Shown here: in pieces, positions 1,281 to 20,848 of the stretch | Position numbering within the stretch: position 1 is the first letter of the stretch | Layout of the letters: each line of letters begins with the position of its first letter | Assembly: GCA_963548345.1 (NCBI GenBank) | Contig: CAUUUQ010000003.1 | Coordinates: 1-24,000 of the forward strand | Reading direction: 5' to 3' | Origin: an uncultured Atopobium sp. | GTDB lineage: Bacteria; Actinomycetota; Coriobacteriia; Coriobacteriales; Atopobiaceae | Length of the DNA: 24,000 nucleotides | Translations under genes and position numbers: made by a program | Notes under the pieces: generated by a model | Databases searched by the model: none | What the model saw: only the letters and a program-made list of their open reading frames with translations | Told to the model about the DNA's origin: nothing

Positions 1281-2354
1281 TTAGCTCAAAGACTTAACGT
1301 ACTTGTCCAGGTCGTCCTTGCTTGCAGGAGGAACAACGGAGCCAGCCTTGATCTTATCGAGAAGACCAATAGCTGCCTTGTAGGTGTCCTCACCCATGAG
1401 GTGGTGATCCTCAGCAATTCCGACAGCATCCTCGGAAGCGCCCAGAGAAATGGTGGTGCCACCCTTCTGGCCGTCCTTCAGGATCTTCTCGGAAATCTCA
1501 ACGATAGCAACGTTGACACGCTTAAGAGCGGAGGTCAGAACGTTCTCTGGAGCAAGATATGCCTGGTCACGGTCAACGCCGATAGCAAGCTTGTTTGCGT
1601 CCTTAGCTGCCTCAATAACGCCGGTTCCTACGCCGCCTGCAGCGTGGAAGACAACGTCGCAACCATCGGAGTACATGGAGTTAGCAATAGCCTTGCCCTT
1701 TGCAGCATCGGAGAAGGACTCTGCGTACTGTGCAGAAACCTCAACGTTGGTGTTGTTCTCCTTGTTTGCAAAAGCAACGCCGCCGCGGTAACCATACTCA
1801 AACTGGTCGATAAGTGCGGAAGAAATGCCGCCAACAAAGCCAACCTTGCCAGTCTTTGTGGTGCGAGCAGCAATGTAGCCAACAACAAAGGAAGGCTCCT
1901 GAGCGCGGAACATAACGCCAGTGAAGTTAGAAACCTGAGAATCGTTGCCGTTGTCGATGATGGCAAACTGGGTGTTTGGATTGTCCTTAGCAGCCTTAAG
2001 AGTTGCATCAGCCATAGCAAAGCCAACGCCCCAAACAAGGTCAGACTCAGCGTCAACAGCCTTATCAAGGTTGGTTGCGTAATCGGAATCCTGCTTGGAC
2101 TCAAGGTAGCTGACATCCCAGCCGTTCTTGTCCTTGAGCTCGGTCATGCCCTCCCAAGCAGACTGATTGAAGGACTGGTCGTTAACACCACCAGTATCGG
2201 TAACCATGGTGAGCTTCTTTTTCTTCTCACCTGATGCCTTCTGGCCGCCGTCGTCCTTCTTCTGGTTGCAGCCTGCAAGACCTGCAAGTGCTGCAAATGC
2301 GCCAACGCCGGTTGCGCCGGTCACAAAACTACGACGAGAAACGTTCTTGTTCAT
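1281..2354 (-). CDS. BMP-family (PnrA/Med-like) ABC substrate-binding lipoprotein, probable nucleoside-binding protein
   Basis: 357-aa ORF. The N-terminus MNKNVSRRSFVTGATGVGAFAALAGLAGCNQ combines an RR-type signal with a lipobox LAGC. The body fits the BMP family pattern (TDTGGVNDQSFNQSAWEG, GFVGG, AIGVDRDQ). It is flanked by deoD and an ABC ATPase. Confidence 0.9.
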   Translation of the reverse strand: MNKNVSRRSFVTGATGVGAFAALAGLAGCNQKKDDGGQKASGEKKKKLTMVTDTGGVNDQSFNQSAWEGMTELKDKNGWDVSYLESKQDSDYATNLDKAVDAESDLVWGVGFAMADATLKAAKDNPNTQFAIIDNGNDSQVSNFTGVMFRAQEPSFVVGYIAARTTKTGKVGFVGGISSALIDQFEYGYRGGVAFANKENNTNVEVSAQYAESFSDAAKGKAIANSMYSDGCDVVFHAAGGVGTGVIEAAKDANKLAIGVDRDQAYLAPENVLTSALKRVNVAIVEISEKILKDGQKGGTTISLGASEDAVGIAEDHHLMGEDTYKAAIGLLDKIKAGSVVPPASKDDLDKYVKSLS

Positions 2355-2517
2355 TCCGTACTCTCCTTACCTCATGTGGCGGGAACATCCAGCTTTAGCG
2401 CTGGATCTTTATGAGAAGTTGACCAAACTCCCCTGACTTAAGCGGAAAATCCGCATGGTTCCAAAACAAACAGCAATGGCAAGCTGCTAATCTGCAATGC
2501 TTTATGCAACAAGTGCC

Positions 2518-3228
2518 TTAAGCAACAACAGAAAGAGCAACCTCCATCATCTGCGTGAAACTAGTCTGACGCTCTTCAGCAGTAAGTGCTTCTCCTGTAA
2601 GAGGCAAATCAGAGATAGTTAGCAGCGTAAGCGCATGCTTATGAGCGTACATGGCGTTGAGATACAGGGCTGCCGACTCCATCTCAACGGCAAGAACATC
2701 CATGCTTGCCCATTTAGAAAGCGAGTTGTCTACGGTATAGAACACGTCGCTTGCCAGAATATTACCAACGCGAACGGGATAGCCCAGCTTTTCTGCACCA
2801 GCAATAGCCTTGCTCAACAGGCCAAAGTCTGCGGTAGGTGCAATGGTTCCAGGCATTCCGTACTGTGATGGATAATTAGAATCAGTGCTGGAAGACATGC
2901 CAATAACAATGTCTCTAAGCTTTACCTCAGGAGCAAGGCCGCCAGCGCTACCAATGCGGAGAATGTTGTCAACTCCGTAGAAATTAAAGAGCTCGTAAGA
3001 ATAAATACCAATGGAAGGCATACCCATACCAGAACCCATAACGGAGACTGGCTGTCCCTTGTAGGTGCCGGTGTAGCCAAACATATTGCGAACGGTGTTG
3101 AACTGCTCAACGTTCTCCAGGTACGTGTCTGCAAGAAGCTTTGCACGCAAAGGGTCACCTGGCATGAGGACCGTCTTAGCAATCTGGCCCTCAACAGCAG
3201 CGTTATGGGGAGTTGGGGTAGTAGCCAT
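2518..3228 (-). CDS. deoD: Purine nucleoside phosphorylase, DeoD type
   Basis: 236 aa, colinear with E. coli DeoD as recalled ([68 protein letters not shown]). Its ATG overlaps the deoB stop (TAATG). Confidence 0.95.
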
Positions 3229-4418
3229 TAGTTCTCCTTAAGAATCTCTGACAGGTGAGAAGTTCCAACACCAAGTTGCTCAACGCCAAAATAATCAAGA
3301 ATTGTCTCGGCCATATCGGCAAATGTAGCGGTTGTACCAAGGTTGGTGTTTGGCTCGACCTTTGGACCCGTGATAAGCAGTGGCACGTACTCACGAGAGT
3401 GATCAGTAGATGGTGTTACTGGGTCACAGCCATGATCTGCGGTGATAATGAACAGGTCATCCTCGCGAAGGCCCTCAATAATCTGAGGAATACGCTCGTC
3501 AAAGTAAGAAAGAGCGTTGGAGTATCCCACAGGATCGTTGCGGTGACCGTAAATCATGTCAGTGTCAACAAGGTTGGTGAAACACAGGCCATTAAAGTCT
3601 TTGCTGGTGGCCTCAATAGTCTTTTGAATTCCATCAGCGTTGCAGGTGGTGAACTCAAACTCAGTCATGCCACGGTGAGCAAAGATGTCATAAATCTTGC
3701 CAATAGAAAGAACGTCAAAGCCGTTCTCTTTAAGGCGATCAAGCATAGTTGGGCCCGTTGGCTCAAGCGAGAAGTCATGACGGCGAGAAGTGCGCTGATA
3801 TGGCCACTCTCCCTCAAAAGGACGAGCAATAACACGAGCAACACCGTGCTCACCCTGAAGAATCTCGCGCGCAATGCGGCAATACTCATAGAGTTTCTCG
3901 GGACTTACCACGTCCTCATGTGCAGCAATCTGGAAAACAGAATCTGCTGAGGTGTAGACAATCAGAGCACCAGTCTCTACGTGCTCTTTACCAAAGTCTC
4001 TAATAACGTCGGTTCCGGAGTAAGGTTTGTTGCAGAGAACCTTGCGGCCCGTCTTCTGCTCAAACTCCTCAATGACCTCCTGTGGAAAACCATCAGGATA
4101 AGTTGGGAACTTCTTTGGAGAAATGACGCCTGCCATCTCCCAGTGACCAACCGTAGTGTCTTTACCAGCGGATTTCTCCTGCATGCGAGCATATGCGCCC
4201 TCAGGAGACTCAATTGGCTTCAGATCAACGTCATAAACGGTATCAAGTGCTCCATCAATATTAAGAAGGCCCAACTTTGTCATATTTGGGATAGTAAGAA
4301 CGCCACTTGTTGCGCAGGCACAAAGGGTATTGCTACCCTCGTCTCCGTATGCCGCTGCATCAGGCTCTTCGCCGATGCCAAAACTATCAAGAACAACTAC
4401 AAAAACACGTTTAGGCAT
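3228..4418 (-). CDS. deoB: Phosphopentomutase
   Basis: The ORF track starts at 4469, but TAGGAGGTAGT precedes the ATG at 4418. The family N-terminus [17 protein letters not shown] begins there (compare E. coli [15 protein letters not shown]). Supporting motifs are [22 protein letters not shown] and DHSREYVP. Confidence 0.93.
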
Positions 4419-4563
4419 ACTACCTCCTAAAACGCCCGAAAAAAGCATTTGCGCACGATACATACGCAAGCTAACTTATGTGGACGAGTCATTACTATTC
4501 ATTAAATATATTATTACAGTTGCATAACACCGACGCCCAATTTAAAGAGATTTTCACGATACA

Positions 4564-4596: not shown

Positions 4597-4753
4597 ACGC
4601 AGCAAATGCTTAGAAAAATCAAGCAGGTAAAACTAATATGGCGAGAAAATCGTTGAGCTCACCAGTGAAAAATTTAATGAATTCATTCTTTACAGACTCT
4701 AGCTGCTGTCTTATCGTTGTCCAAAGCAAGATTTAAGCACTAGCTTAAATAAG

Positions 4754-4794
4754 ATAAGCACCTGTTTAGAAGTTTTATATAAGCACCTGTTTAG
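4754..4794 (+). repeat. 16-bp perfect direct repeat ATAAGCACCTGTTTAG x2 (25-bp period), candidate operator upstream of psuK
   Basis: Copies at 4754-4769 and 4779-4794, plus a third TAAGCAC box at 4734-4740. The repeat ends 32 nt before ATG 4826. Confidence 0.6.
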
Positions 4795-4825
4795 TCGGAT
4801 TCTATTTTTGCTGCTAGGAGGCCTG

Positions 4826-5908
4826 ATGCTCACCAATCGAGAACAGATGATTTTTAACTGGATTAAAGAGCAGCCTTCTATTACTCAGAAGGAAATTGCA
4901 GAGCGTGCAGGTATCTCACGTTCTTCTGTTTCGGTTCACATCTCCAACCTTACCGCAAAGGGCGCAATTTTGGGCCGCCGCTATATTTTGAGCGAGCGCC
5001 CCTACTTTATTGTGATTGGCGCTGCCAACATGGATATTGCTGGCCGCCCAGACGCTTCCCTTGTAGCGGGAGATTCAAACCCTGGCAAGGTCACCATGTC
5101 CTTTGGTGGCGTTGGCAGAAATGTTGCCCACAACCTAGCCCTTCTCGACAGTGACGTTCGTCTGCTCACCGCTTTTGGCGAGGACTATCGTGCGCGCGAG
5201 CTCAAAGAGGGCTGCCTGGACTGCGGCATTGACATCGATGCTTCTATTACCGTGCCGGGCGCTTCCACTTCCACCTACCTCTTCATCATGGACGAGCACG
5301 GTGAGATGCAGGAAGCCATCAATGACATGCAGATTTACGAGTATGTCACCCCTGAGCGCATCGAGGAGCGCCTGGATGTTATCCAGCACGCCGCAGCTTG
5401 CGTGATTGACACCAACCTACCTCAGCAGACCATCGAGTTCATTGCCAAGAACGTGACCTGCCCAATCTTCTGCGATCCCGTTTCTTCCATCAAGGCGCAG
5501 AAGCTCAAGAAGGTTCTGGGCAAAATTCACACGCTCAAGCCAAATCGCCTTGAGGCCGAGATGCTCTCGGGCATCAAGATTACTGACGATACCTCCCTTG
5601 AAGCCGCAGCTCACGAGCTGCTTGCAACAGGACTGAAGCGCGTGTTTATCTCCCTTGGCGAGAAGGGCCTTCTTTGTGCTGATCACGAGAAGACCGTCCG
5701 CTTGCCACTGCTTCCTGCAAAGCTCGTCAACATGACAGGCGCAGGAGATGCCATGATGGCGGGAATTACCTGGGCGTACACTCAGGGCATGACGCTTGAG
5801 CAAACCGGCCTGGTAGGCATGGCTGCTTCCAGCATGGCCATTGAGGGTGAGGACACCATCAACGGTGAGCTCAACGTTGAAGAGGTTATCAAGCGCGCAG
5901 GTATTTAG
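4826..5908 (+). CDS. psuK: Pseudouridine kinase (PfkB family) with N-terminal winged-helix HTH domain
   Basis: The ORF opens at TTG 4808, but AGGAGG sits 4 nt before ATG 4826. The N-terminal ~55 aa form an HTH (ITQKEIAERAGISRSSVSVHISNLTAKGAI). The kinase part is colinear with E. coli PsuK/YeiC (GAANMDIAG, DSNPGK, GGVGRNVAHNLALL, IHTLKPNRLEAEMLSGI, NMTGAGDAMMAG). As recalled, the HTH+kinase layout matches E. coli YeiI. Confidence 0.88.
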   Translation: MLTNREQMIFNWIKEQPSITQKEIAERAGISRSSVSVHISNLTAKGAILGRRYILSERPYFIVIGAANMDIAGRPDASLVAGDSNPGKVTMSFGGVGRNVAHNLALLDSDVRLLTAFGEDYRARELKEGCLDCGIDIDASITVPGASTSTYLFIMDEHGEMQEAINDMQIYEYVTPERIEERLDVIQHAAACVIDTNLPQQTIEFIAKNVTCPIFCDPVSSIKAQKLKKVLGKIHTLKPNRLEAEMLSGIKITDDTSLEAAAHELLATGLKRVFISLGEKGLLCADHEKTVRLPLLPAKLVNMTGAGDAMMAGITWAYTQGMTLEQTGLVGMAASSMAIEGEDTINGELNVEEVIKRAGI

Positions 5909-5999: not shown

Positions 6000-6926
6000 A
6001 TGTCAAACCTGAAGGATTTTCTCGTTGTATCTAACGAGGTCAAAGAGGCTCTTGAGCAGAACAAGCCTGTTGTAGCTCTGGAGTCCACCATCATTTCGCA
6101 CGGTATGCCTTACCCACAGAACGTTGAGACCGCTCTAAAGGTTGAGCAGATTATCCGCGACAACGGTGCAATTCCTGCAACTATCGCAATTATTAACGGC
6201 CAGATGCGTGCCGGCCTTTCCGCTGGCGAGATTGACTACCTGGGCAAGAAGGGCCGCGAGGTTGCTAAGGTTAGCCGCCGCGACCTTCCTGTTATCATCG
6301 CTGAGAAGAAGGACGGTGCAACTACCGTCACTACTACCATGATGATTGCTCACCTGGCAGGCATCGACGTCTTTGCAACCGGCGGCATTGGTGGCGTTCA
6401 CCGTGGCGCTGAGACCACCATGGACATTTCCGCTGACCTCGAGGAGCTTGCACAGACTCCTGTTATGGTCATTTGCGCTGGTGCAAAGTCCATTCTTGAC
6501 CTTGGCCTTACCCTTGAGTACCTGGAGACCAAGGGTGTTCCAGTACTTGGTTACCAGACCGAGGAGCTTCCTGCGTTCTACACCCGCAAGAGCGGCTTTA
6601 GCGTTGACTACCGTGTTGACTCCCCTGCTGAGCTGGCAGAAATCTTTACTACCCAGCAGCAGATTGGCATGAACAGCGGTCTTCTGGTCACCAACCCAAT
6701 TCCTGAGCAGTATGCAATGGATAAGGACACCATCGACGCAGCTATCGAGAAGGCCCTTGCAGAGGCAGAGGCAAACGGTATCCACGGCAAGGAGTCCACA
6801 CCATTCTTGCTGGCAAAGGTTGCTGAGATCACTGGTAACAACTCCCTTGAGTCCAACATTCAGCTGGTCTTCAACAACGTTGCTCTTGGCGCAAAGGTTG
6901 CTGCAGAGGTTTGCAACCGCAAGTAA
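6000..6926 (+). CDS. psuG: Pseudouridine-5'-phosphate glycosidase
   Basis: 308 aa. VVALESTIISHGMPYPQN, VFATGGIGGVHRGAETTMDISADLEELA, ICAGAKSILDLGLTLEYLETKGVP, TNPIPEQ and GKESTPFLLAKVAEITGNNSLESNIQLVFNNVAL all match E. coli PsuG/YeiN as recalled. Confidence 0.95.
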   Translation: MSNLKDFLVVSNEVKEALEQNKPVVALESTIISHGMPYPQNVETALKVEQIIRDNGAIPATIAIINGQMRAGLSAGEIDYLGKKGREVAKVSRRDLPVIIAEKKDGATTVTTTMMIAHLAGIDVFATGGIGGVHRGAETTMDISADLEELAQTPVMVICAGAKSILDLGLTLEYLETKGVPVLGYQTEELPAFYTRKSGFSVDYRVDSPAELAEIFTTQQQIGMNSGLLVTNPIPEQYAMDKDTIDAAIEKALAEAEANGIHGKESTPFLLAKVAEITGNNSLESNIQLVFNNVALGAKVAAEVCNRK

Positions 6927-15206: not shown

Positions 15207-16415
15207 GTGGCGTTTGACCCAGTAAAAGAAGACTACCAGCGGCTTATCCTCCGCTTTGCTCGTACGCAAGTTGGCGACGAGGACAGCATTGCCACGCTGA
15301 TGAAGGACTTCAACTGGCGATTCTCCAACGACCGCGATTCTCTCCCCCAAACAGACGAAGACCGCGCGTTCAACCTGGTTGCTCAGGAGGCCGAAATTGT
15401 TGATTATCGCCTGCCGTTTGTCGAAGAATCTCAGGCGCAGGCCCTTATCGATCAGGGAAAACGCCTCCTCAATCAGGCAATTCAGCTGGACCCCAACTGT
15501 TTTGACGCTCAGCGCATGCTCCACGCCTCAAATAGCAGGCTTTTTGACGCTTACTATCAGTTCCTTGTGGAGAAGCTCCCCCAGGTAGAAGCCGCGTGCT
15601 ACCAGAAGGCGCAAGAGTCCTCGCAGGGACTCCCTGCCGAGCAGGCAGAACTTGCCCAGAGGCTGGCAATCAACCCCTATAAGCGCTGGTTAGCGACGCT
15701 TTCTTCTCGCGCGCTTATCTGCGGTCGAAACAAAGATGCCATCGCATATGGCGAGAAACTCCTGGAACTTGACGCTGCGGACGCAGCCGATGCTCGTTTT
15801 ACGCTTGCACTCGCATACGCAAAACTCGAGGACGAAGACGCCCTCGACAACCTTATGGACCAGTACCGCAAGCTAGATCCGCCTCGTGGGGCAGATGACC
15901 CGTGGATTTTGCTGGCTCGCTTGGCTATACACTTCAAGAAGCGTGAGTTGGTTGAAGCGGAACACTACCTTGACCTGCTGATTGAGCGCTATCCGGAGGC
16001 AACGCTTTGTTGCTTTGTGCAGAAAGATTTGCCCGAGGGAGAGTTCTCTCGCCTCAACGTGCTTCCCTACTCTGAGGACGAGCTCATCATTGCCATTGCA
16101 GAAGCATCTGTGTTGCTGCAAGAAGGAAATGACCTGATAGGACGCGGTGTTCTTGGTCGTTGGCTTGCAGATCAAGTTAGGGCGAGAGACCCTAAGACCG
16201 TTGAACTTGCAGAAAAAGAGCTGCAGATGCAGGCAAATGCTTTGTTCGCTTCGGCAGATTCGTTTCCTGATGGTCCGGGCGCCGCTCCTGACGGCCCGGT
16301 CGGCCCCGGCTTCCCTGACGGCCCCGGCTTCCCCGGAGGCCCCGCTGGTCCGTGGTCAAATGGACCGCATAGTGACGGGCCAAATAACCCACACTCAGGT
16401 GGTGATGCCAAGTGA
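15207..16415 (+). CDS. Hypothetical helical-repeat (TPR-like) protein with a Gly/Pro-rich C-terminal tail
   Basis: 402 aa with a GTG start and GAAAGGA upstream. No signal peptide or TM segment is evident. The tail reads PDGPGAAPDGPVGPGFPDGPGFPGGPAGPWSNGPHSDGP. It is a paralogue of the next ORF. Confidence 0.7.
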   Translation: MAFDPVKEDYQRLILRFARTQVGDEDSIATLMKDFNWRFSNDRDSLPQTDEDRAFNLVAQEAEIVDYRLPFVEESQAQALIDQGKRLLNQAIQLDPNCFDAQRMLHASNSRLFDAYYQFLVEKLPQVEAACYQKAQESSQGLPAEQAELAQRLAINPYKRWLATLSSRALICGRNKDAIAYGEKLLELDAADAADARFTLALAYAKLEDEDALDNLMDQYRKLDPPRGADDPWILLARLAIHFKKRELVEAEHYLDLLIERYPEATLCCFVQKDLPEGEFSRLNVLPYSEDELIIAIAEASVLLQEGNDLIGRGVLGRWLADQVRARDPKTVELAEKELQMQANALFASADSFPDGPGAAPDGPVGPGFPDGPGFPGGPAGPWSNGPHSDGPNNPHSGGDAK

Positions 16416-17440
16416 TAAAGCATTCCGCTAACGACATGGCCAGCGAGCAGGTAGACCGTCTGGTAGCTAAGTGCGCGCAAGAGAAGAACATCGTCTCTGA
16501 AGCTGCTCTCTATGAGTTGAAACTTGCGGTAGAAGCTTCGCCTGAAGACTTTATTGCTGACGAAGAAGAAAAGGCTTTCGCACAATACGTCAACGTCATT
16601 GGCAAGTATCAGGCTGGAATTACTAAAGAAATTGATTCCGATGCTGACTTCTTTGCAAGTCGCATGGACCTGCTTAACCTTTTGCATAATCAGATGACAA
16701 ATATTATTGAAAACCAAGCTCTTGCTAACACAAGCATCAATCTTGAAGCACAGCGAATTCTTGCGCAGATCTCCAACAATCATCCTGCAGCAATCCTCAA
16801 CGACCTACTTGACCTGCAAAAAGAATTTGACCCTATCTTTAGGCCAAAACTAGAGCAAGCAAAGAAAGCTCACGGCGATGCTTGGACCTGCGCTGAAGCT
16901 CGACCACTTTTGCGCCTCTACGCACAGATTGCCCAGGTAGCAACAGATTGCGCCTGTTTCAAGCTCTCCAAAAAAGCCTGTGAAGATCTTCTGTTCTTCT
17001 CGCCAACAGATTTGCTGGGTGCGCGTTTTACCTTGGCATATGTTCTTGCTCGCCTGGAAGATGAGGAAGGGCTCCACAAGCTTGATGAGGATTGCGGATA
17101 TCAATCAAATGCCTGGATGCGACTTGCGTTTACGCTGTTGTTCTTCAAGTTGAATCGCATGTCCGCGGCAAAGCGCGCGCTGAAGGGCTTTGTTAACCTC
17201 GGCGAGGGAGCGGCATATGCACTGCTCAGGCCATCTTTTGTTGATCTCTACATTCCGTGCAGAATTAATTTCACACCTGATACGTTTGCCGAGAACGTTA
17301 TCGCAGTTCACGAGGCCGAGGCGATTATCGCTGACGTACCGGAATTTATTTCATGGGCAGAATCGGTGCCTGGCGTAACTCAGAGCGCTCGCGACTACGC
17401 GTTTAAGGCCGGACTGGACTGGTGGGAAAACGAAGAATAG
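16412..17440 (+). CDS. Hypothetical helical-repeat protein, paralogue of 15207-16415
   Basis: 342 aa. GTG 16412 overlaps the upstream stop (GTGA); ATG 16436 is an alternative start. It shares blocks with the upstream protein, for example ARFTLAYVLARLEDEEGLHKL versus ARFTLALAYAKLEDEDALDNL. Confidence 0.7.
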   Translation: MIKHSANDMASEQVDRLVAKCAQEKNIVSEAALYELKLAVEASPEDFIADEEEKAFAQYVNVIGKYQAGITKEIDSDADFFASRMDLLNLLHNQMTNIIENQALANTSINLEAQRILAQISNNHPAAILNDLLDLQKEFDPIFRPKLEQAKKAHGDAWTCAEARPLLRLYAQIAQVATDCACFKLSKKACEDLLFFSPTDLLGARFTLAYVLARLEDEEGLHKLDEDCGYQSNAWMRLAFTLLFFKLNRMSAAKRALKGFVNLGEGAAYALLRPSFVDLYIPCRINFTPDTFAENVIAVHEAEAIIADVPEFISWAESVPGVTQSARDYAFKAGLDWWENEE

Positions 17441-17508: not shown

Positions 17509-17583
17509 GTCCCCATCGTCTAACGGTTAGGACATCGCCCTTTCAAGGCGGCAATACGGGTTCGATTCCCGTTGGGGGCACCA
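17509..17583 (+). tRNA. tRNA-Glu (anticodon UUC), CCA encoded
   Basis: Manual cloverleaf: acceptor GTCCCCA/TGGGGGC, anticodon stem TCGCC/GGCGG with loop CTTTCAA (TTC at 17542-17544), T arm ACGGG-TTCGATT-CCCGT, then A-CCA. Confidence 0.92.
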
Positions 17584-17595
17584 TAGAACGCAAAT

Positions 17596-17630
17596 CCCAA
17601 GGCAGCGCATGCTCCCTTGGGTTTTTGTTT
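17596..17630 (+). terminator. Terminator after tRNA-Glu
   Basis: CCCAAGG-(12 nt)-CCTTGGG followed by TTTTTGTTTT. Confidence 0.7.
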
Positions 17631-17644
17631 TATTGGACCTCTAT

Positions 17645-18733
17645 TTAACAGTTGGCGAGAAGGACCTTTTGTAGACTCTCAACCGACAGTCCTGCACGCG
17701 CGAGAATGTTGTGGTGAACGTCTGCCTCAAGATACGTATCAGGCATGCCCAAACGTATTACCTGCGGACATGCACCTGAAGCGCTGAGCTGCTCGACAAC
17801 TGCACTGCCGAATCCACCCAAAATGCTGTGCTCTTCAACGGTAATAATCACGTCAGAATGCTGACAGATTTCCGTCAGAGAAGCGCCAAGCGGTTTGATA
17901 TTCGATACTCCGTAGACCTCGATGTTCGTCCGAACGAGAACATCATCCTGCTCTGCAGCTCGCTGAGCCGCCTCGATAACTCGGCTGGTTATCGCACCTG
18001 TTGTAAGAACGATTACGCGCTTAGGCTGAGTGGCGGCTGTGGCTTCGGTAGCCGCTGCTTCGGGCGTCGCTGCGCCGTCTGCGACTGCTGGGTCCACCGT
18101 GTCCGCCGCGCCAGCTGACTCAAAGAGTTTCTCGACACCAGAGTCATCAAAAACGTAACCATCTGGATGCAGATTGACGCCATCGCACGAGGTCATACGC
18201 ACATAAGCTGGTCGTGGATGCCTTGCAAGCTCTATGAGCGTTGCGGCAAGCTGCGCGTTATCAACCGGATTGAACACGGAAAGTCCCGGGATGGTCCTGG
18301 TAACCGCAATATCTTCCACCGCCATGTGAGATGGTCCTGTAGCTGCGGATTCGCAACCAGCAGCAACACCCACAAGCACCACGGGCGACTTCATCATGCC
18401 AAGGTTGACGCGAATCTGATCAAGCGTTCGTGAGGTCAAAAACGTGGCATAGCACGGCGCAAAAACGTGGAAGCCCTCATTTGCGCAGGCAGATGCCACT
18501 TCAATAAGGTTTTGTTCCGCAATTCCGCACTGAATGTAGCCGTCTGGCCTAAGCTCTCGGAAGCGGTCCAAGTTCAGACGACGACCATAGTCGGCCACAG
18601 CAACAGTTAGCAGCTCATCGTCCTCGGCAAGCTTACCCATAACCCAGCCGAACACTTCTTTTGTATTCATACCCGCAAGCAACTGTGACTCTTCCGCAGA
18701 AATTTGCGCTGGCTGCAACGATGTATCTAGCAT
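17645..18733 (-). CDS. Transketolase, pyrimidine-binding + C-terminal subunit (split type), with an Ala/Thr-rich insertion
   Basis: CGIAEQNLIEVASACA (the conserved Glu of the Pyr domain) and FAPCYATFL, followed by the C-terminal domain VIVLTTGAI...NIKPLG...TVEEHSILGGFGS. GAGGAGG is 7 nt from ATG 18733, whereas the track start at 18739 is only 1 nt from the SD. The gene overlaps the upstream stop (ATGCTAG). Confidence 0.88.
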   Translation of the reverse strand: MLDTSLQPAQISAEESQLLAGMNTKEVFGWVMGKLAEDDELLTVAVADYGRRLNLDRFRELRPDGYIQCGIAEQNLIEVASACANEGFHVFAPCYATFLTSRTLDQIRVNLGMMKSPVVLVGVAAGCESAATGPSHMAVEDIAVTRTIPGLSVFNPVDNAQLAATLIELARHPRPAYVRMTSCDGVNLHPDGYVFDDSGVEKLFESAGAADTVDPAVADGAATPEAAATEATAATQPKRVIVLTTGAITSRVIEAAQRAAEQDDVLVRTNIEVYGVSNIKPLGASLTEICQHSDVIITVEEHSILGGFGSAVVEQLSASGACPQVIRLGMPDTYLEADVHHNILARAGLSVESLQKVLLANC

Positions 18734-20466
18734 GAGCATGCCTCCTCTGCGACTTTCAGATCAAGCAATGCCTGCTCATAGAGGTCATCCGTCACACATG
18801 CGTCGTGGAACGAGACGTTATTCTCGGCAAATGAAAGTCCCTTGCCCTTGATGGTGTGCGCGATAATCGCACGAGGCCTGGAAGTTTGCTGCTTCAATGC
18901 GTCGTACAACGCAAGCACATCATGGCCATCTACCTCGACGGACTCAAAACCAAACGCATCAAACTTTCTTGCAATTGACCCGGTGTCCAAAATGGACGCG
19001 CAAGGGCCGTCCAGCTGCATGCGGTTCTGGTCAACAATGACCGTCACGTTGGAGAGCTGGTTGTGACCGATAAACGCGGCGCTCTCCCAAATGGAGCCCT
19101 CGTCGCACTCGCCGTCGCCCACAATACAAAAAACGCGAGAAGAAAGATCTTTTCTGCGAAGGCTTAATCCCAGGCCAGCGGCGTAGCCCAAACCCATTCC
19201 AAGGCTGCCGCCAGAGATTTCAAAGCCACGCTGAGGATCTCGCAGTGGATGCTTAAAGAGAACAGCATCGGGCCCAAAAACTCCGCGGTCGATATCTTCT
19301 TGAGAGATCATTCCTGCACGTAGAAGAGCTGGGAACAGCGCCAGCGATGTATGAGCCTTAGAGAGAATCAAGCGATCTCTAAGCTCCCACTCGCAATCCC
19401 TGAGACCCACCTGCATGACCTTGCTCAAAAGTACGGAGACAATGTCTGCCACGGAACACGCACCGCCAATGTGAAATGGCGTTGAGCTGTAGCGATGTGC
19501 CAGCTCGATGATACCTCGACGCACCTCTAGCGCTTCGTGACGCAGATAAAACTCAAGCTGCGCGCGCTGATCAGAGTCTATTTCTGTAGAAGTCGGCGAT
19601 GCGTCCACGTGCTCTGACTGGCGAACAGAAGAGATGTCCAGAGGCCCCATAGAGCCATCTACCTGCTCAGATACGCCAACAACACTCTGATGTGGAGCAA
19701 GCCAAGTCTGACTCCACTCAATACAATTGCCATCGGACAGCTCAATTACCTGCTCAAGTACAAGCAAAGCCTCGTTTGGAGAACATTGCAGGTAGTCGGC
19801 ATGATCTTTGCCTGCAATTTGCGACTGATAGCGCATGCGAGAGCGCGCAATCTCTTTTTGAGAAGTTCTTTCAACCGCGTCAAAGAGCGACTCATTCTCA
19901 AAGTCTGCCTCTTCAAGCTGCGGACAAACAAGCAGGTTGGACCACGATTCCTGGCATACCACCGGCCTATCCGAGACACTCCTGACACGACGTAAAAAGA
20001 GCACGTCAGAGCCAATTGGAATCTCCAGGTGCTCGGCAACGGCTTGATCTGCAGGAACTACCTGCTTAAAGAGGACTTCAGTTCGATACTCAAAGCCGCC
20101 ATCTCTGAGTGCGGCTGCAAATGAAAGCACGGTATTTCCCGCCGCATGTCGGACGGTGTTAGAAATAACCTGCGTTGCTCGACCCTTTTGAGTAAGCAGC
20201 AAACCCTCTTTGACCAGGGATTGAATGGCTTTTCTGATGGTTCCTCGGCTAACACCATACTGCGTCATGAATTCGGCCTCAGACGGAATGTACGTTCCCG
20301 CCTTCCAGTCTTCTGACAGAATTTTGACACGCATCAAATCTGACAGCTGAACATGAAGAGGTGTAGCAGACGACGTATTAAGTCCTCCCCTGACCTGCGG
20401 AGATAGTGACTCTAGTGATTCGTTCTCAGAAACTAAAACCGGAAAAACTCCTGTCTCAAATGACAT
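18727..20466 (-). CDS. Fusion protein: GntR/HutC-type regulator (winged HTH + UTRA) fused to the transketolase N-terminal TPP-binding subunit
   Basis: A single uninterrupted 579-codon ORF, with GGAGG 4 nt before ATG 20466. Residues ~36-100 form the GntR HTH (IPSEAEFMTQYGVSRGTIRKAIQSLVKEGLL). Residues ~105-265 have a UTRA-like layout, and ~266-305 form an acidic/Ser-rich linker. Residues ~306-579 are the transketolase N-subunit, with the TPP motif GDGECDEGSIWESAAFIGHNQLSNVTVIVDQN. Confidence 0.8.
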   Translation of the reverse strand: MSFETGVFPVLVSENESLESLSPQVRGGLNTSSATPLHVQLSDLMRVKILSEDWKAGTYIPSEAEFMTQYGVSRGTIRKAIQSLVKEGLLLTQKGRATQVISNTVRHAAGNTVLSFAAALRDGGFEYRTEVLFKQVVPADQAVAEHLEIPIGSDVLFLRRVRSVSDRPVVCQESWSNLLVCPQLEEADFENESLFDAVERTSQKEIARSRMRYQSQIAGKDHADYLQCSPNEALLVLEQVIELSDGNCIEWSQTWLAPHQSVVGVSEQVDGSMGPLDISSVRQSEHVDASPTSTEIDSDQRAQLEFYLRHEALEVRRGIIELAHRYSSTPFHIGGACSVADIVSVLLSKVMQVGLRDCEWELRDRLILSKAHTSLALFPALLRAGMISQEDIDRGVFGPDAVLFKHPLRDPQRGFEISGGSLGMGLGYAAGLGLSLRRKDLSSRVFCIVGDGECDEGSIWESAAFIGHNQLSNVTVIVDQNRMQLDGPCASILDTGSIARKFDAFGFESVEVDGHDVLALYDALKQQTSRPRAIIAHTIKGKGLSFAENNVSFHDACVTDDLYEQALLDLKVAEEACSC

Positions 20467-20654
20467 AGGTCCTCCGAAGTGAGTAAGAAATTAGTCATGC
20501 ATACGTTAGGTACAAGACAAGTAGTATACAAGTTTCTGAAAGAGAACAGAATAGGAGTTATGCGTCTTTTCATCTGTTATAACGCCACTTGAATTTAAAA
20601 GCTCTATTTACTGATCGATAGAAAGAGAAGACTTATTCATAGCTTCTCCTTATG

Positions 20655-20686
20655 AAAAAAGCGGCTACACGATGGCAACCGCTTTT
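20655..20686 (-). terminator. Terminator downstream of tRNA-Leu
   Basis: AAGCGG...CCGCTT stem flanked by A6 on the plus strand, which gives a U6 run on the minus-strand transcript. Confidence 0.6.
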
Positions 20687-20763
20687 CGGTCTCGGTTCCG
20701 TAGAATGTCAACGAGACGTATCACTAACAATAATCTGAACATTAATTTATTCTGCAACAAAAG

Positions 20764-20848
20764 TGGTAGGGGCGGCGGGACTCGAACCCGCAAGACCGAA
20801 GTCGAGGGATTTTAAGTCCCCTGCGTCTGCCAATTCCGCCACGCCCCC
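20764..20848 (-). tRNA. tRNA-Leu (anticodon UAA), CCA encoded
   Basis: The reverse complement gives acceptor GGGGGCG/CGCCCCT, D arm GCGGAATTGGCAGACGC, anticodon loop CTTAAAA (TAA at 20812-20814), a long variable arm CGACTTCGGTC, T arm GCGGG-TTCGAGT-CCCGC, then A-CCA. Total 85 nt. Confidence 0.92.

Follow-up and report, generated by a model that had tools for sequence, protein, structure and literature searches.

Architecture of the fusion gene and its partner

The 24,000-nt stretch of DNA from an uncultured Atopobium sp. analysed here, hereafter the window, carries two overlapping genes on its minus strand. The first encodes a GntR/HutC-type regulator joined in frame to the predicted thiamine pyrophosphate (TPP)-binding subunit of a split, transketolase-like enzyme, and the second encodes the partner subunit. 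All coordinates are positions in this stretch. The DNA comes from Lancefieldella (formerly Atopobium) parvula, a member of the Atopobiaceae within the Coriobacteriales. The fusion protein is 98% identical to its counterpart on the L. parvula chromosome CP097092.1. An earlier note on this DNA had described a GntR helix-turn-helix (HTH), a UTRA domain, a linker and Transketolase_N in one 579-codon open reading frame (ORF), an architecture that Pfam bears out. The frame opens with ATG and runs for 579 codons without interruption, and the matches to GntR (PF00392, aa 40-100, 55.4 bits, cut-off 27), UTRA (PF07702, aa 124-257, 98.9 bits, cut-off 23.8) and Transketolase_N (aa 332-561, 87.7 bits) all exceed the gathering score. 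The two genes and their parts are as follows.

18727..20466 (-), fusion gene, 579 aa: disordered N-terminal tail, GntR winged HTH (wHTH), UTRA, tether and Transketolase_N (PP domain)
20471..20475 (-), Shine-Dalgarno sequence GGAGG of the fusion gene, read in the sequence, 4 nt ahead of the ATG
20158..20361 (-), GntR winged-HTH domain, aa 36-103 (Pfam; alignment to NagR, 4U0V)
19681..20130 (-), UTRA effector domain, aa 113-262 (Pfam; NagR alignment; 3HFI fold match)
19582..19677 (-), tether, aa 264-295, about 30 aa, disordered (predicted local distance difference test score, pLDDT, below 50; alignments; 48 strain variants)
18730..19581 (-), Transketolase_N or PP domain, aa 296-579 (6YAK alignment, E = 3e-50; fold match with a template modelling, TM, score of 0.86)
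17645..18739 (-), partner subunit with Transket_pyr and Transketolase_C domains (Pfam), start probably at ATG 18733

An AlphaFold model of the fusion protein, built on 50 family members, has a mean pLDDT of 81.9 and three confident domains. The disordered segments are aa 1-23, 103-112 and 264-294, after which a long helix (298-325) opens the enzyme domain, and the packing of the domains against one another is predicted without confidence (predicted TM score, pTM, 0.54). In Foldseek searches the C-terminal half matched the N chain of the split transketolase 6YAK (TM 0.86), and the N-terminal half matched 3HFI (TM 0.93) as well as YvoA/NagR, DasR and PhnF (probability 1.00 for YvoA, DasR and PhnF); no solved structure covering both halves was found. 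With 579 aa and a third module beyond UTRA, the protein does not match the two-domain size of about 240 aa of the HutC type. An aminotransferase domain is absent, and MocR/PdxR models match aa 29-108 only, that is, the HTH. The disordered tail (aa 1-35, window 20362-20466) keeps a (G)FPxP motif across genera, present as 'GVFPVL' in the window and as 'GFPTP' in most members.

Integrity of the fusion

Whether a missed stop or a frameshift could have joined two neighbouring genes was judged by comparison across assemblies, not by read pile-ups. Complete ORFs of at least 540 aa were found in 49 independent metagenome assemblies, 46 of them exactly 579 aa long; they represent 48 distinct proteins, and all 49 intact copies keep the linker in frame. 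The 59 sequence clusters described below, which include Olsenella profusa isolate genomes, and the complete L. parvula chromosome argue in the same direction. What can be said for an assembly or sequencing artefact is that the frame is interrupted in a few contigs of metagenome-assembled genomes (MAGs; L006, L101, L108 and L128). Against this, the break in L006 comes from a pair of single-base homopolymer indels that lie 277 nt apart and compensate each other, and the stretch of peptide that they enclose shares 98.6% identity with that of the window. The comparative data thus already refute an artefact, which is vanishingly improbable and was rejected, and the frameshift or missed stop that the earlier note wished to see checked is excluded by the 49 intact assemblies. 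The fusion is real. Three of the interrupted copies (L006, L101 and L108, on contigs BNJS, BNJV and BNJU of one sequencing project) have single-base homopolymer indels that break the ORF, which looks like long-read assembly error and not pseudogenisation.

A different concern is that the two halves might exist or act apart, either because translation also begins internally, for instance at M273, or because proteases cut the tether, so that the fusion would be functionally inconsequential. The disordered tether would indeed be open to proteases, the window strain has an in-frame ATG at 19650, and a stand-alone enzyme chain serves one sublineage. However, at position 273, which the earlier note had put forward as a possible internal start, the majority of L. 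parvula strains have Ile and other genera have Phe or Leu, and there is no other conserved Met inside the tether; the internal start was rejected because the residue is not conserved. Moreover, the tether differs in length and sequence between genera and is polymorphic within L. parvula, yet the frame across it is kept in every intact copy (alignments; 48 strain variants), an upkeep that separate expression would not require. Functional separation of the halves is therefore considered very unlikely.

The regulator half

Residues 29-253 of the fusion protein align without large gaps to NagR/YvoA of Bacillus subtilis (E = 4e-21; PDB 4U0V). In NagR, the effector phosphate is held by Thr90, Ser165-Ile166-Tyr167, Arg133 and Arg135, and DNA is read via Arg38, Arg48 and Gly69 of the wing (PMC4333415). 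The phosphate ligands Arg133 and Arg135 correspond to R160 and R162 of the fusion protein, and Arg48 and Gly69 to R74 and G95, all four of which are invariant in 50 family members; the Ser165-Ile-Tyr segment at a helix start corresponds to S193-L-F. We infer from these residues that the N-terminal half binds DNA and that its effector bears a phosphate group or some comparable anion. The regulatory role that the earlier note had assigned to this half is thus upheld as a prediction by the invariant DNA-contact and phosphate-ligand residues, together with a conserved repeat element ahead of the gene (see below). The closest regulator structure, 3HFI, is a 'putative regulator' from Escherichia coli CFT073 and yielded no effector name.

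The enzyme half and the partner subunit

The PP domain lies on the fusion protein and the Pyr and C domains on the chain encoded by the adjacent gene (Pfam), which is the organisation of split transketolases. The overlap between the partner gene and the stop of the fusion gene is 13 nt if counted from the first ATG (18739) and 7 nt (ATGCTAG) from the second (18733). The second ATG is better spaced to the GAGGAGG motif, which makes the 7-nt overlap a reasonable choice, and the overlap and the translational coupling proposed in the earlier note agree with this reading.

The GDG...N motif of the fusion protein is G450-D451-G452...N481. The histidines H26, H66, H100, H261 and H473 of E. coli transketolase (EcTK) correspond to H332, H372, H406 and H554 of the fusion protein and to H138 of the partner, aligned and at least 90% conserved. 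We take H26 and H261 to have donor-binding or catalytic roles. Those of H66, H100 and H473 are documented (PMC7661550). In the split transketolase of Carboxydothermus hydrogenoformans (ChTK), which is an alpha2-beta2 complex whose N chain alone is dimeric (PMC7661550), the cofactor ligands of the N chain are K68, H70, D148, G149, E150, N178 and K240; in the 6YAK alignment these fall on K370, H372, D451, G452, E453, N481 and K540 of the fusion protein (ligand list from PMC7661550). The partner keeps the activating Glu, as E75 in the motif GIAEQN.

The substrate-binding side is less conventional. Classical transketolases orient the substrate phosphate with an 'RSFHR' set of residues plus D469, mutation of which alters specificity (PMC7661550, PMC11659671), and sulfofructose transketolases have RAFDR instead (PMC11659671). 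The partner lacks the canonical phosphate-orienting residues, which points to a non-canonical transketolase-like enzyme. Against NCBIfam NF004559 the N part scores 212 bits and the partner 124 bits, with a cut-off of 488 that is set for the full-length enzyme. A comparison of 84 loci placed the partner in a large non-canonical split-transketolase subfamily without equivalents of H461, D469 and R520, to which the Coriobacteriales clade adds an SDYGRRL signature of its own in the partner. Members of this subfamily (L015-L046 and similar loci) occur in Pelagibacteraceae, Burkholderiales, Lachnospiraceae, Planctomycetes, Methanoregula and others. The enzyme is predicted to be a TPP-dependent, transketolase-like ketol-transferase. 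The split transketolase of the earlier note therefore stands as regards its two-chain organisation and cofactor ligands, but the enzyme is not a classical one, with the phosphate-orienting residues absent and scores below the NCBIfam cut-off.

A repeat element upstream of the fusion gene

The region upstream of the fusion gene and the end of the partner gene hold the following candidate signals.

20510..20532 (-), putative operator CTTGTATACTACTTGTCTTGTAC: three YTGTMY direct repeats with spacings of 11 + 5 nt, 44-66 nt upstream of the ATG
20503..20508 (-), candidate -10 hexamer TAACGT (TANNNT), 17 nt after TTGTAT, from reading the sequence only
20655..20687 (-), terminator-like hairpin with a 13-bp stem and a U-run, minimum free energy (MFE) -19.2 kcal/mol, z = -3.2 versus shuffles
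17596..17621 (-), terminator-like hairpin 3' of the partner gene, MFE -20 kcal/mol, z = -3.0

The 23-nt element is single-copy in the window, and none of 100 shuffles matched it at up to 3 mismatches. With its N and Y positions allowed for, it was matched exactly upstream of two other fusion genes (L010 and L084) whose products are 48-49% identical to that of the window and whose GC-rich genomes offer flanks of the element that cannot be aligned with the AT-rich window; identity over 23 nt despite such protein divergence suggests an autoregulatory operator. A metagenome scan gave 80 occurrences: 72 immediately precede a fusion homologue, in 65 cases at a distance of exactly 44 nt, 5 sit at the ends of contigs, and 3 are variants within ORFs on unrelated contigs of 33-39% GC. 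Across 12 diverse fused genes, the 200 nt upstream contained 32 YTGTMY words on the coding strand and 7 on the other strand, with 2.5 expected (13-fold); their spacing is mostly 11 nt, and 5, 14 and 15 nt are also present. Of 11 diverse fused loci, 9 have a phased YTGTMY-N5-YTGTMY pair just upstream of the gene, in L011 in inverted orientation, and neither of the two unfused loci (L012 and L013) has one. A wider regulon found no support for the strict operator pattern: apart from the three variants on unrelated contigs, a scan of the metagenome collection placed it at the fusion gene only (about 75 L. parvula-type contigs).

Given the candidate -10 hexamer, the operator would overlap the -35 region and the spacer; a sigma-70 consensus scan called no promoter ahead of the fusion gene. 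The hairpin at 20655..20687 would putatively insulate the operon from transcription of the upstream tRNA-Leu and ppx genes. CTTGTATACTACTTGTCTTGTAC is best read as a putative operator to which the encoded protein would bind with its own wHTH and which would overlap the promoter of a self-contained two-gene operon. Alternatively, the element might be a core promoter or the site of another factor, the HutC half acting elsewhere or on nothing. The words TTGTAT, TTGTCT and TTGTAC are -35-like and the repeats are direct, not palindromic, as such a reading would have it; but three to five copies at an 11-nt phase, a 23-nt identity that spans AT-rich and GC-rich genomes with unalignable flanks, the disappearance of the repeats where the regulator half has gone, and the restriction of the strict element to the fusion gene all make it improbable. 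The sole other phased pair in the window also lacks conservation. This pair, CTGTCTTATCGTTGTCC at 4706-4722 (+), lies in the divergent intergenic region of a nucleoside-salvage cluster, between the deoB-like and HTH-PfkB genes; it is not conserved in the orthologous regions L192 and L193, is thus probably due to chance, and was dropped as a second operator.

L. parvula strains are alike up to about 100 nt upstream of the ATG, beyond which at least two unrelated sequence types occur (20570-20763; L001, L002, L004 and L006), which suggests a variable insertion spot beside the tRNA-Leu gene. The type present in the window includes a mini-ORF of 10 codons with a good Shine-Dalgarno sequence (ATG 20640 to TAA 20608, minus strand), longer in L003 and L005, which may be a gene remnant.

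Distribution and evolutionary history

Among 5.8 billion proteins, a word-indexed search recovered 59 clusters (at the 90% identity level) in which a single chain carries GntR, UTRA and Transketolase_N; they share 43-98% identity with the query. All named sources belong to the Coriobacteriales: Lancefieldella, Atopobium, Olsenella (O. profusa, O. massiliensis and O. umbonata), Ca. Coprovicinus, and unclassified Atopobiaceae and Coriobacteriaceae. When 1.84 billion representatives (50% identity clusters) were searched exhaustively with HMMER profiles, only two gave a full three-domain match, plus one N-truncated fragment; the remaining matches covered the enzyme part alone or the regulator part alone. 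Stand-alone HutC regulators with the same hallmark motifs occur elsewhere, including the E. coli protein of 3HFI.

Other proteins with an N-terminally extended Transketolase_N are enzyme-enzyme fusions and not regulators, the added part being a PfkB kinase, an NAD-epimerase, a glycosyltransferase, a methyltransferase or a GNAT domain. In this group Transketolase_N is the C-terminal module of PfkB, NAD-epimerase, GT2, methyltransferase and GNAT fusions and of one protein of 1,528 aa (P0102, P0177, P0189, P0113, P0115, P0132, P0140, P0143, P0095 and P0124). With so many N-terminal fusions, the N-terminus of the split-transketolase N chain evidently tolerates extra domains.

In all genera examined the gene order is fixed: MazG, a DivIC-like gene, Ppx/GppA, tRNA-Leu (in most), the fusion gene, the partner gene (overlapping by 4-14 nt) and two convergent genes. 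The boundaries of the locus in the window are two tRNA genes.

20764..20848 (-), tRNA-Leu(UAA), upstream boundary (ARAGORN), at the same position in related loci
17509..17583 (+), tRNA-Glu(UUC), downstream boundary (ARAGORN)

The two convergent genes, 15207-16415 (+) and 16412-17440 (+), overlap each other and have no Pfam match; their position is kept family-wide, and the product of the first has a Pro/Gly-rich low-complexity tail at its C-terminus.

Three MAGs (L012-L014) have the same synteny with a stand-alone N chain of about 300 aa. In a neighbour-joining tree of this chain, the Coriobacteriales clade was monophyletic in 200 of 200 bootstraps; so was the unfused trio, which was nested among the fused sequences in 194 of 200, monophyly of all fused sequences being recovered in 6 of 200. 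This nesting points to a single fusion near the base of the clade and to later deletion of the regulator half in one sublineage. The fusion is roughly as old as its clade and has been kept at one chromosomal locus. An origin from the fusion of adjacent genes found no support: in the closest outgroups without the fusion, no HutC gene lies within 8 kb of the locus. Two Oscillospiraceae loci (L056, 3134-3316, and L065, 1347-1502) have a weak GntR-HTH match directly upstream of, and co-oriented with, a split-transketolase N gene of a different subtype (IDIGKSCKT/ANDGASHQ), a case of regulator and transketolase genes that are neighbours but not fused.

Natural variants that lost the regulator or the catalytic residues

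Two kinds of variant bear on function. In the unfused sublineage (L012 and L013), the regulator half and the upstream repeats are both absent. A second lineage (P0059 in the protein set, L083 in the locus set) has a 600-aa protein, seen on 63 contigs, in the same gene order. Of the positions that do not vary among the other 49 sequences, it keeps all 27 in the regulator and has changed 22 of 50 in the enzyme domain, including H332R, H372Y, H406S, H554G, D451A and G452S. These changes hit four catalytic histidines and the metal-binding Asp of the GDG motif, and on sequence grounds the module is judged unable to bind TPP-Mg in the usual manner. The branch leading to P0059 in the enzyme tree is very long, and its partner has lost SDYGRRL and carries GQGEQN in place of GIAEQN, yet the partner ORF is open and overlapping, and YTGTMY words are still present upstream of the gene. 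The only two variants of this locus differ by 1 nt in 2.8 kb. A module that is dead and yet not a pseudogene suggests a non-catalytic role, as a scaffold, a dimeriser or a sensor.

Proposed function

On balance, the protein is probably an autoregulated bifunctional one that combines a HutC-type repressor with the TPP-binding subunit of a two-subunit, non-canonical transketolase-like enzyme. In the mechanism envisaged, the wHTH would bind the phased YTGTMY repeats that overlap the operon promoter, and the bound protein would repress its own synthesis and that of the partner. A phosphorylated metabolite in the UTRA pocket, held by the invariant Arg160 and Arg162, would relieve repression as in NagR. 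The C-terminal half and the partner would assemble into an alpha2-beta2 TPP enzyme. Since the UTRA and transketolase modules are both two-fold dimerisers, the tether of about 30 residues would let one complex carry two DNA-binding heads; and since repressor and enzyme would be a single molecule, the dose of the one would equal the dose of the other. The outcome would be direct negative feedback on the enzyme level, modulated by the metabolite.

Several observations do not sit easily with this proposal. The NagR residue Arg38 corresponds to A64 of the fusion protein, a variable position that is His in other members. The HutC operator is said, in work by Rigali and colleagues from 2002, to be palindromic and of the GT-N-TA-N-AC type. 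The repeats upstream of the fusion gene are direct instead of such a palindrome, and their GTATA and GTCTA cores resemble one half only of this consensus. The TTGNNN words are also -35-like, so that the signal could come partly from a promoter or from another factor's site, and the joint loss of regulator and repeats is a single evolutionary event. The partner is without the classical substrate-phosphate residues, having K27, R54, A126, T134 and S184 where transketolase has R358, S385, H461, D469 and R520. Finally, the lineage with the dead enzyme shows that the protein can be retained without enzyme activity, which fits a regulatory transketolase module better than simple tethering.

This last point leads to another explanation, not mutually exclusive with an autoregulated bifunctional protein, in which the protein is a trigger enzyme or sensor. 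The transketolase-like module and the partner would be the main signal input, and catalysis would be secondary and, in some lineages, dispensable; binding of substrate or TPP, or formation of the heterotetramer, would alter how the tethered HutC heads are arranged or oligomerised and would thereby control DNA binding. The P0059 lineage speaks for it, with its 27 of 27 regulator positions kept alongside 22 of 50 enzyme positions changed, and with a module of about 280 codons and an overlapping partner that are both still open and recognisable, below YTGTMY words, in 63 contigs; so does the ability of the N chain to dimerise by itself (PMC7661550). In the other 49 aligned members, however, the residues for catalysis and cofactor binding vary little or not at all, which points to selection for catalysis; the UTRA pocket with its invariant phosphate-binding arginines provides a conventional effector input; and the AlphaFold model, with a disordered tether and a pTM of 0.54, packs the domains against one another without confidence. 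Such a trigger enzyme is accordingly rated a possibility of distinctly lower standing than the autoregulated bifunctional protein. The earlier note had raised the idea that a transketolase fold was recruited as a sensor; the dead enzyme and intact regulator of P0059 lend it some support, in that lineage. Taken to its furthest, and put forward just as tentatively, the protein could be a flux-sensing repressor whose TPP-enzyme core, with the partner, reports substrate or cofactor occupancy or assembly to two HutC heads, the UTRA pocket serving as a second input and the enzyme of one lineage now being a pure pseudo-enzyme receptor. Given dimerisation through both the UTRA and the transketolase modules, such a protein might also build higher-order chains that read arrays of the 11-nt-phased repeats.

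Comparison with known systems

For the regulator half, the nearest relatives are NagR/YvoA and DasR of the GntR/HutC type (4U0V, 4WWC, 4ZS8), whose wHTH and UTRA domains match the N-terminal 265 aa of the fusion protein; the phosphate-ligand arginines and the Arg48 and Gly69 DNA contacts of NagR are found in it as well. These regulators stop after UTRA (about 243 aa), whereas the fusion protein adds 315 aa of tether and enzyme domain. They have (pseudo)palindromic dre operators and amino-sugar phosphate effectors; the fusion has candidate direct repeats and Ala or His at the Arg38 equivalent.

For the enzyme half, ChTK (6YAK) has the same two-chain layout, PP on one chain and Pyr plus C on the other, and is the best match in both sequence and fold (E = 3e-50, TM 0.86), with all TPP and Ca ligands shared. 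In contrast, its N subunit is a stand-alone 31-kDa chain, and ChTK keeps RSFHR and D469 where the partner of the window has K27, R54, A126, T134 and S184. A precedent for a split transketolase with altered head-group residues acting on non-classical substrates is SqwGH, the sulfofructose transketolase with RAFDR (PMC11659671). Its motif is not that of the window's partner, however, it has no fused regulator, and the fusion locus is without sulfoquinovose genes.

Regulators fused to enzyme folds offer a third comparison. Like the fusion protein, MocR, GabR and PdxR combine a GntR HTH and an enzyme fold that needs a vitamin-derived cofactor on one chain. In the MocR type, a fold-type I aminotransferase-like domain replaces the effector domain, whereas the fusion protein retains both HTH and UTRA and has the enzyme as a third, tethered module, which is moreover one subunit of a hetero-oligomer. 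PutA, BirA and NadR unite DNA binding and a pathway enzyme in one polypeptide and resemble the fusion protein at the domain level only. The concept of trigger enzymes is one that Commichau and Stuelke reportedly set out in 2008, and we know of no trigger enzyme that is a TPP enzyme or of the HutC type, nor did the literature searches turn one up.

Lastly, wHTH-PfkB 'pseudouridine kinase' fusions also have an N-terminal DNA-binding domain on an enzyme of sugar metabolism. They are very common (more than 5,600 matches, some named pseudouridine kinase), have no separate effector domain and are unrelated to the fusion protein in sequence. The window contains one of them, at 4808-5908 (+), as its second regulator-enzyme fusion, with a winged HTH (MarR/HTH_24, aa 8-55) and a PfkB kinase. 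An Indigoidine_A/PsuG-like gene (6000-6926, +) comes next, and divergent from the fusion are phosphopentomutase-like, PNP and Bmp nucleoside-binding genes (1281-4469, -). A perfect 15-nt direct repeat, TAAGCACCTGTTTAG, at 4749-4763 and 4783-4797 (+), lies just upstream of the wHTH-PfkB gene and may be the operator of its product.

Novelty and significance

Full-text literature searches, whose scope did not extend to subscription-only papers or to about 1.4 million author manuscripts, turned up no account of a GntR/HutC-transketolase fusion. The names that databases give to the fusion proteins are automatic only: 'UTRA domain-containing protein', 'transketolase, thiamine pyrophosphate-binding domain protein', or a concatenation. 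The earlier note's impression that an HTH-UTRA-transketolase architecture had not been described thus holds for the searchable literature, and in protein-database searches the named sources were Coriobacteriales only. The fusion joins the known regulator-enzyme fusions MocR, PutA, BirA, NadR and wHTH-PfkB; what is new is the combination of a complete two-domain regulator with one subunit of a hetero-oligomeric TPP enzyme.

Regulator-enzyme fusions reveal a direct wiring of metabolism to transcription. The present case is distinctive in that the enzyme is half of a hetero-oligomer whose other half is, by its overlapping gene, translationally coupled. Evolution has supplied the controls, namely a sister lineage that has only the enzyme and lacks the putative operator, and a further lineage that pairs the regulator with a dead enzyme module, and such natural variants make the benefit of tethering a repressor to its target enzyme testable. 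The fusion also flags a large non-canonical split-transketolase subfamily that lacks the classical phosphate-binding residues. The clade that carries the fusion is made up of Coriobacteriales that are abundant in the mouth and gut, L. parvula being an oral member.

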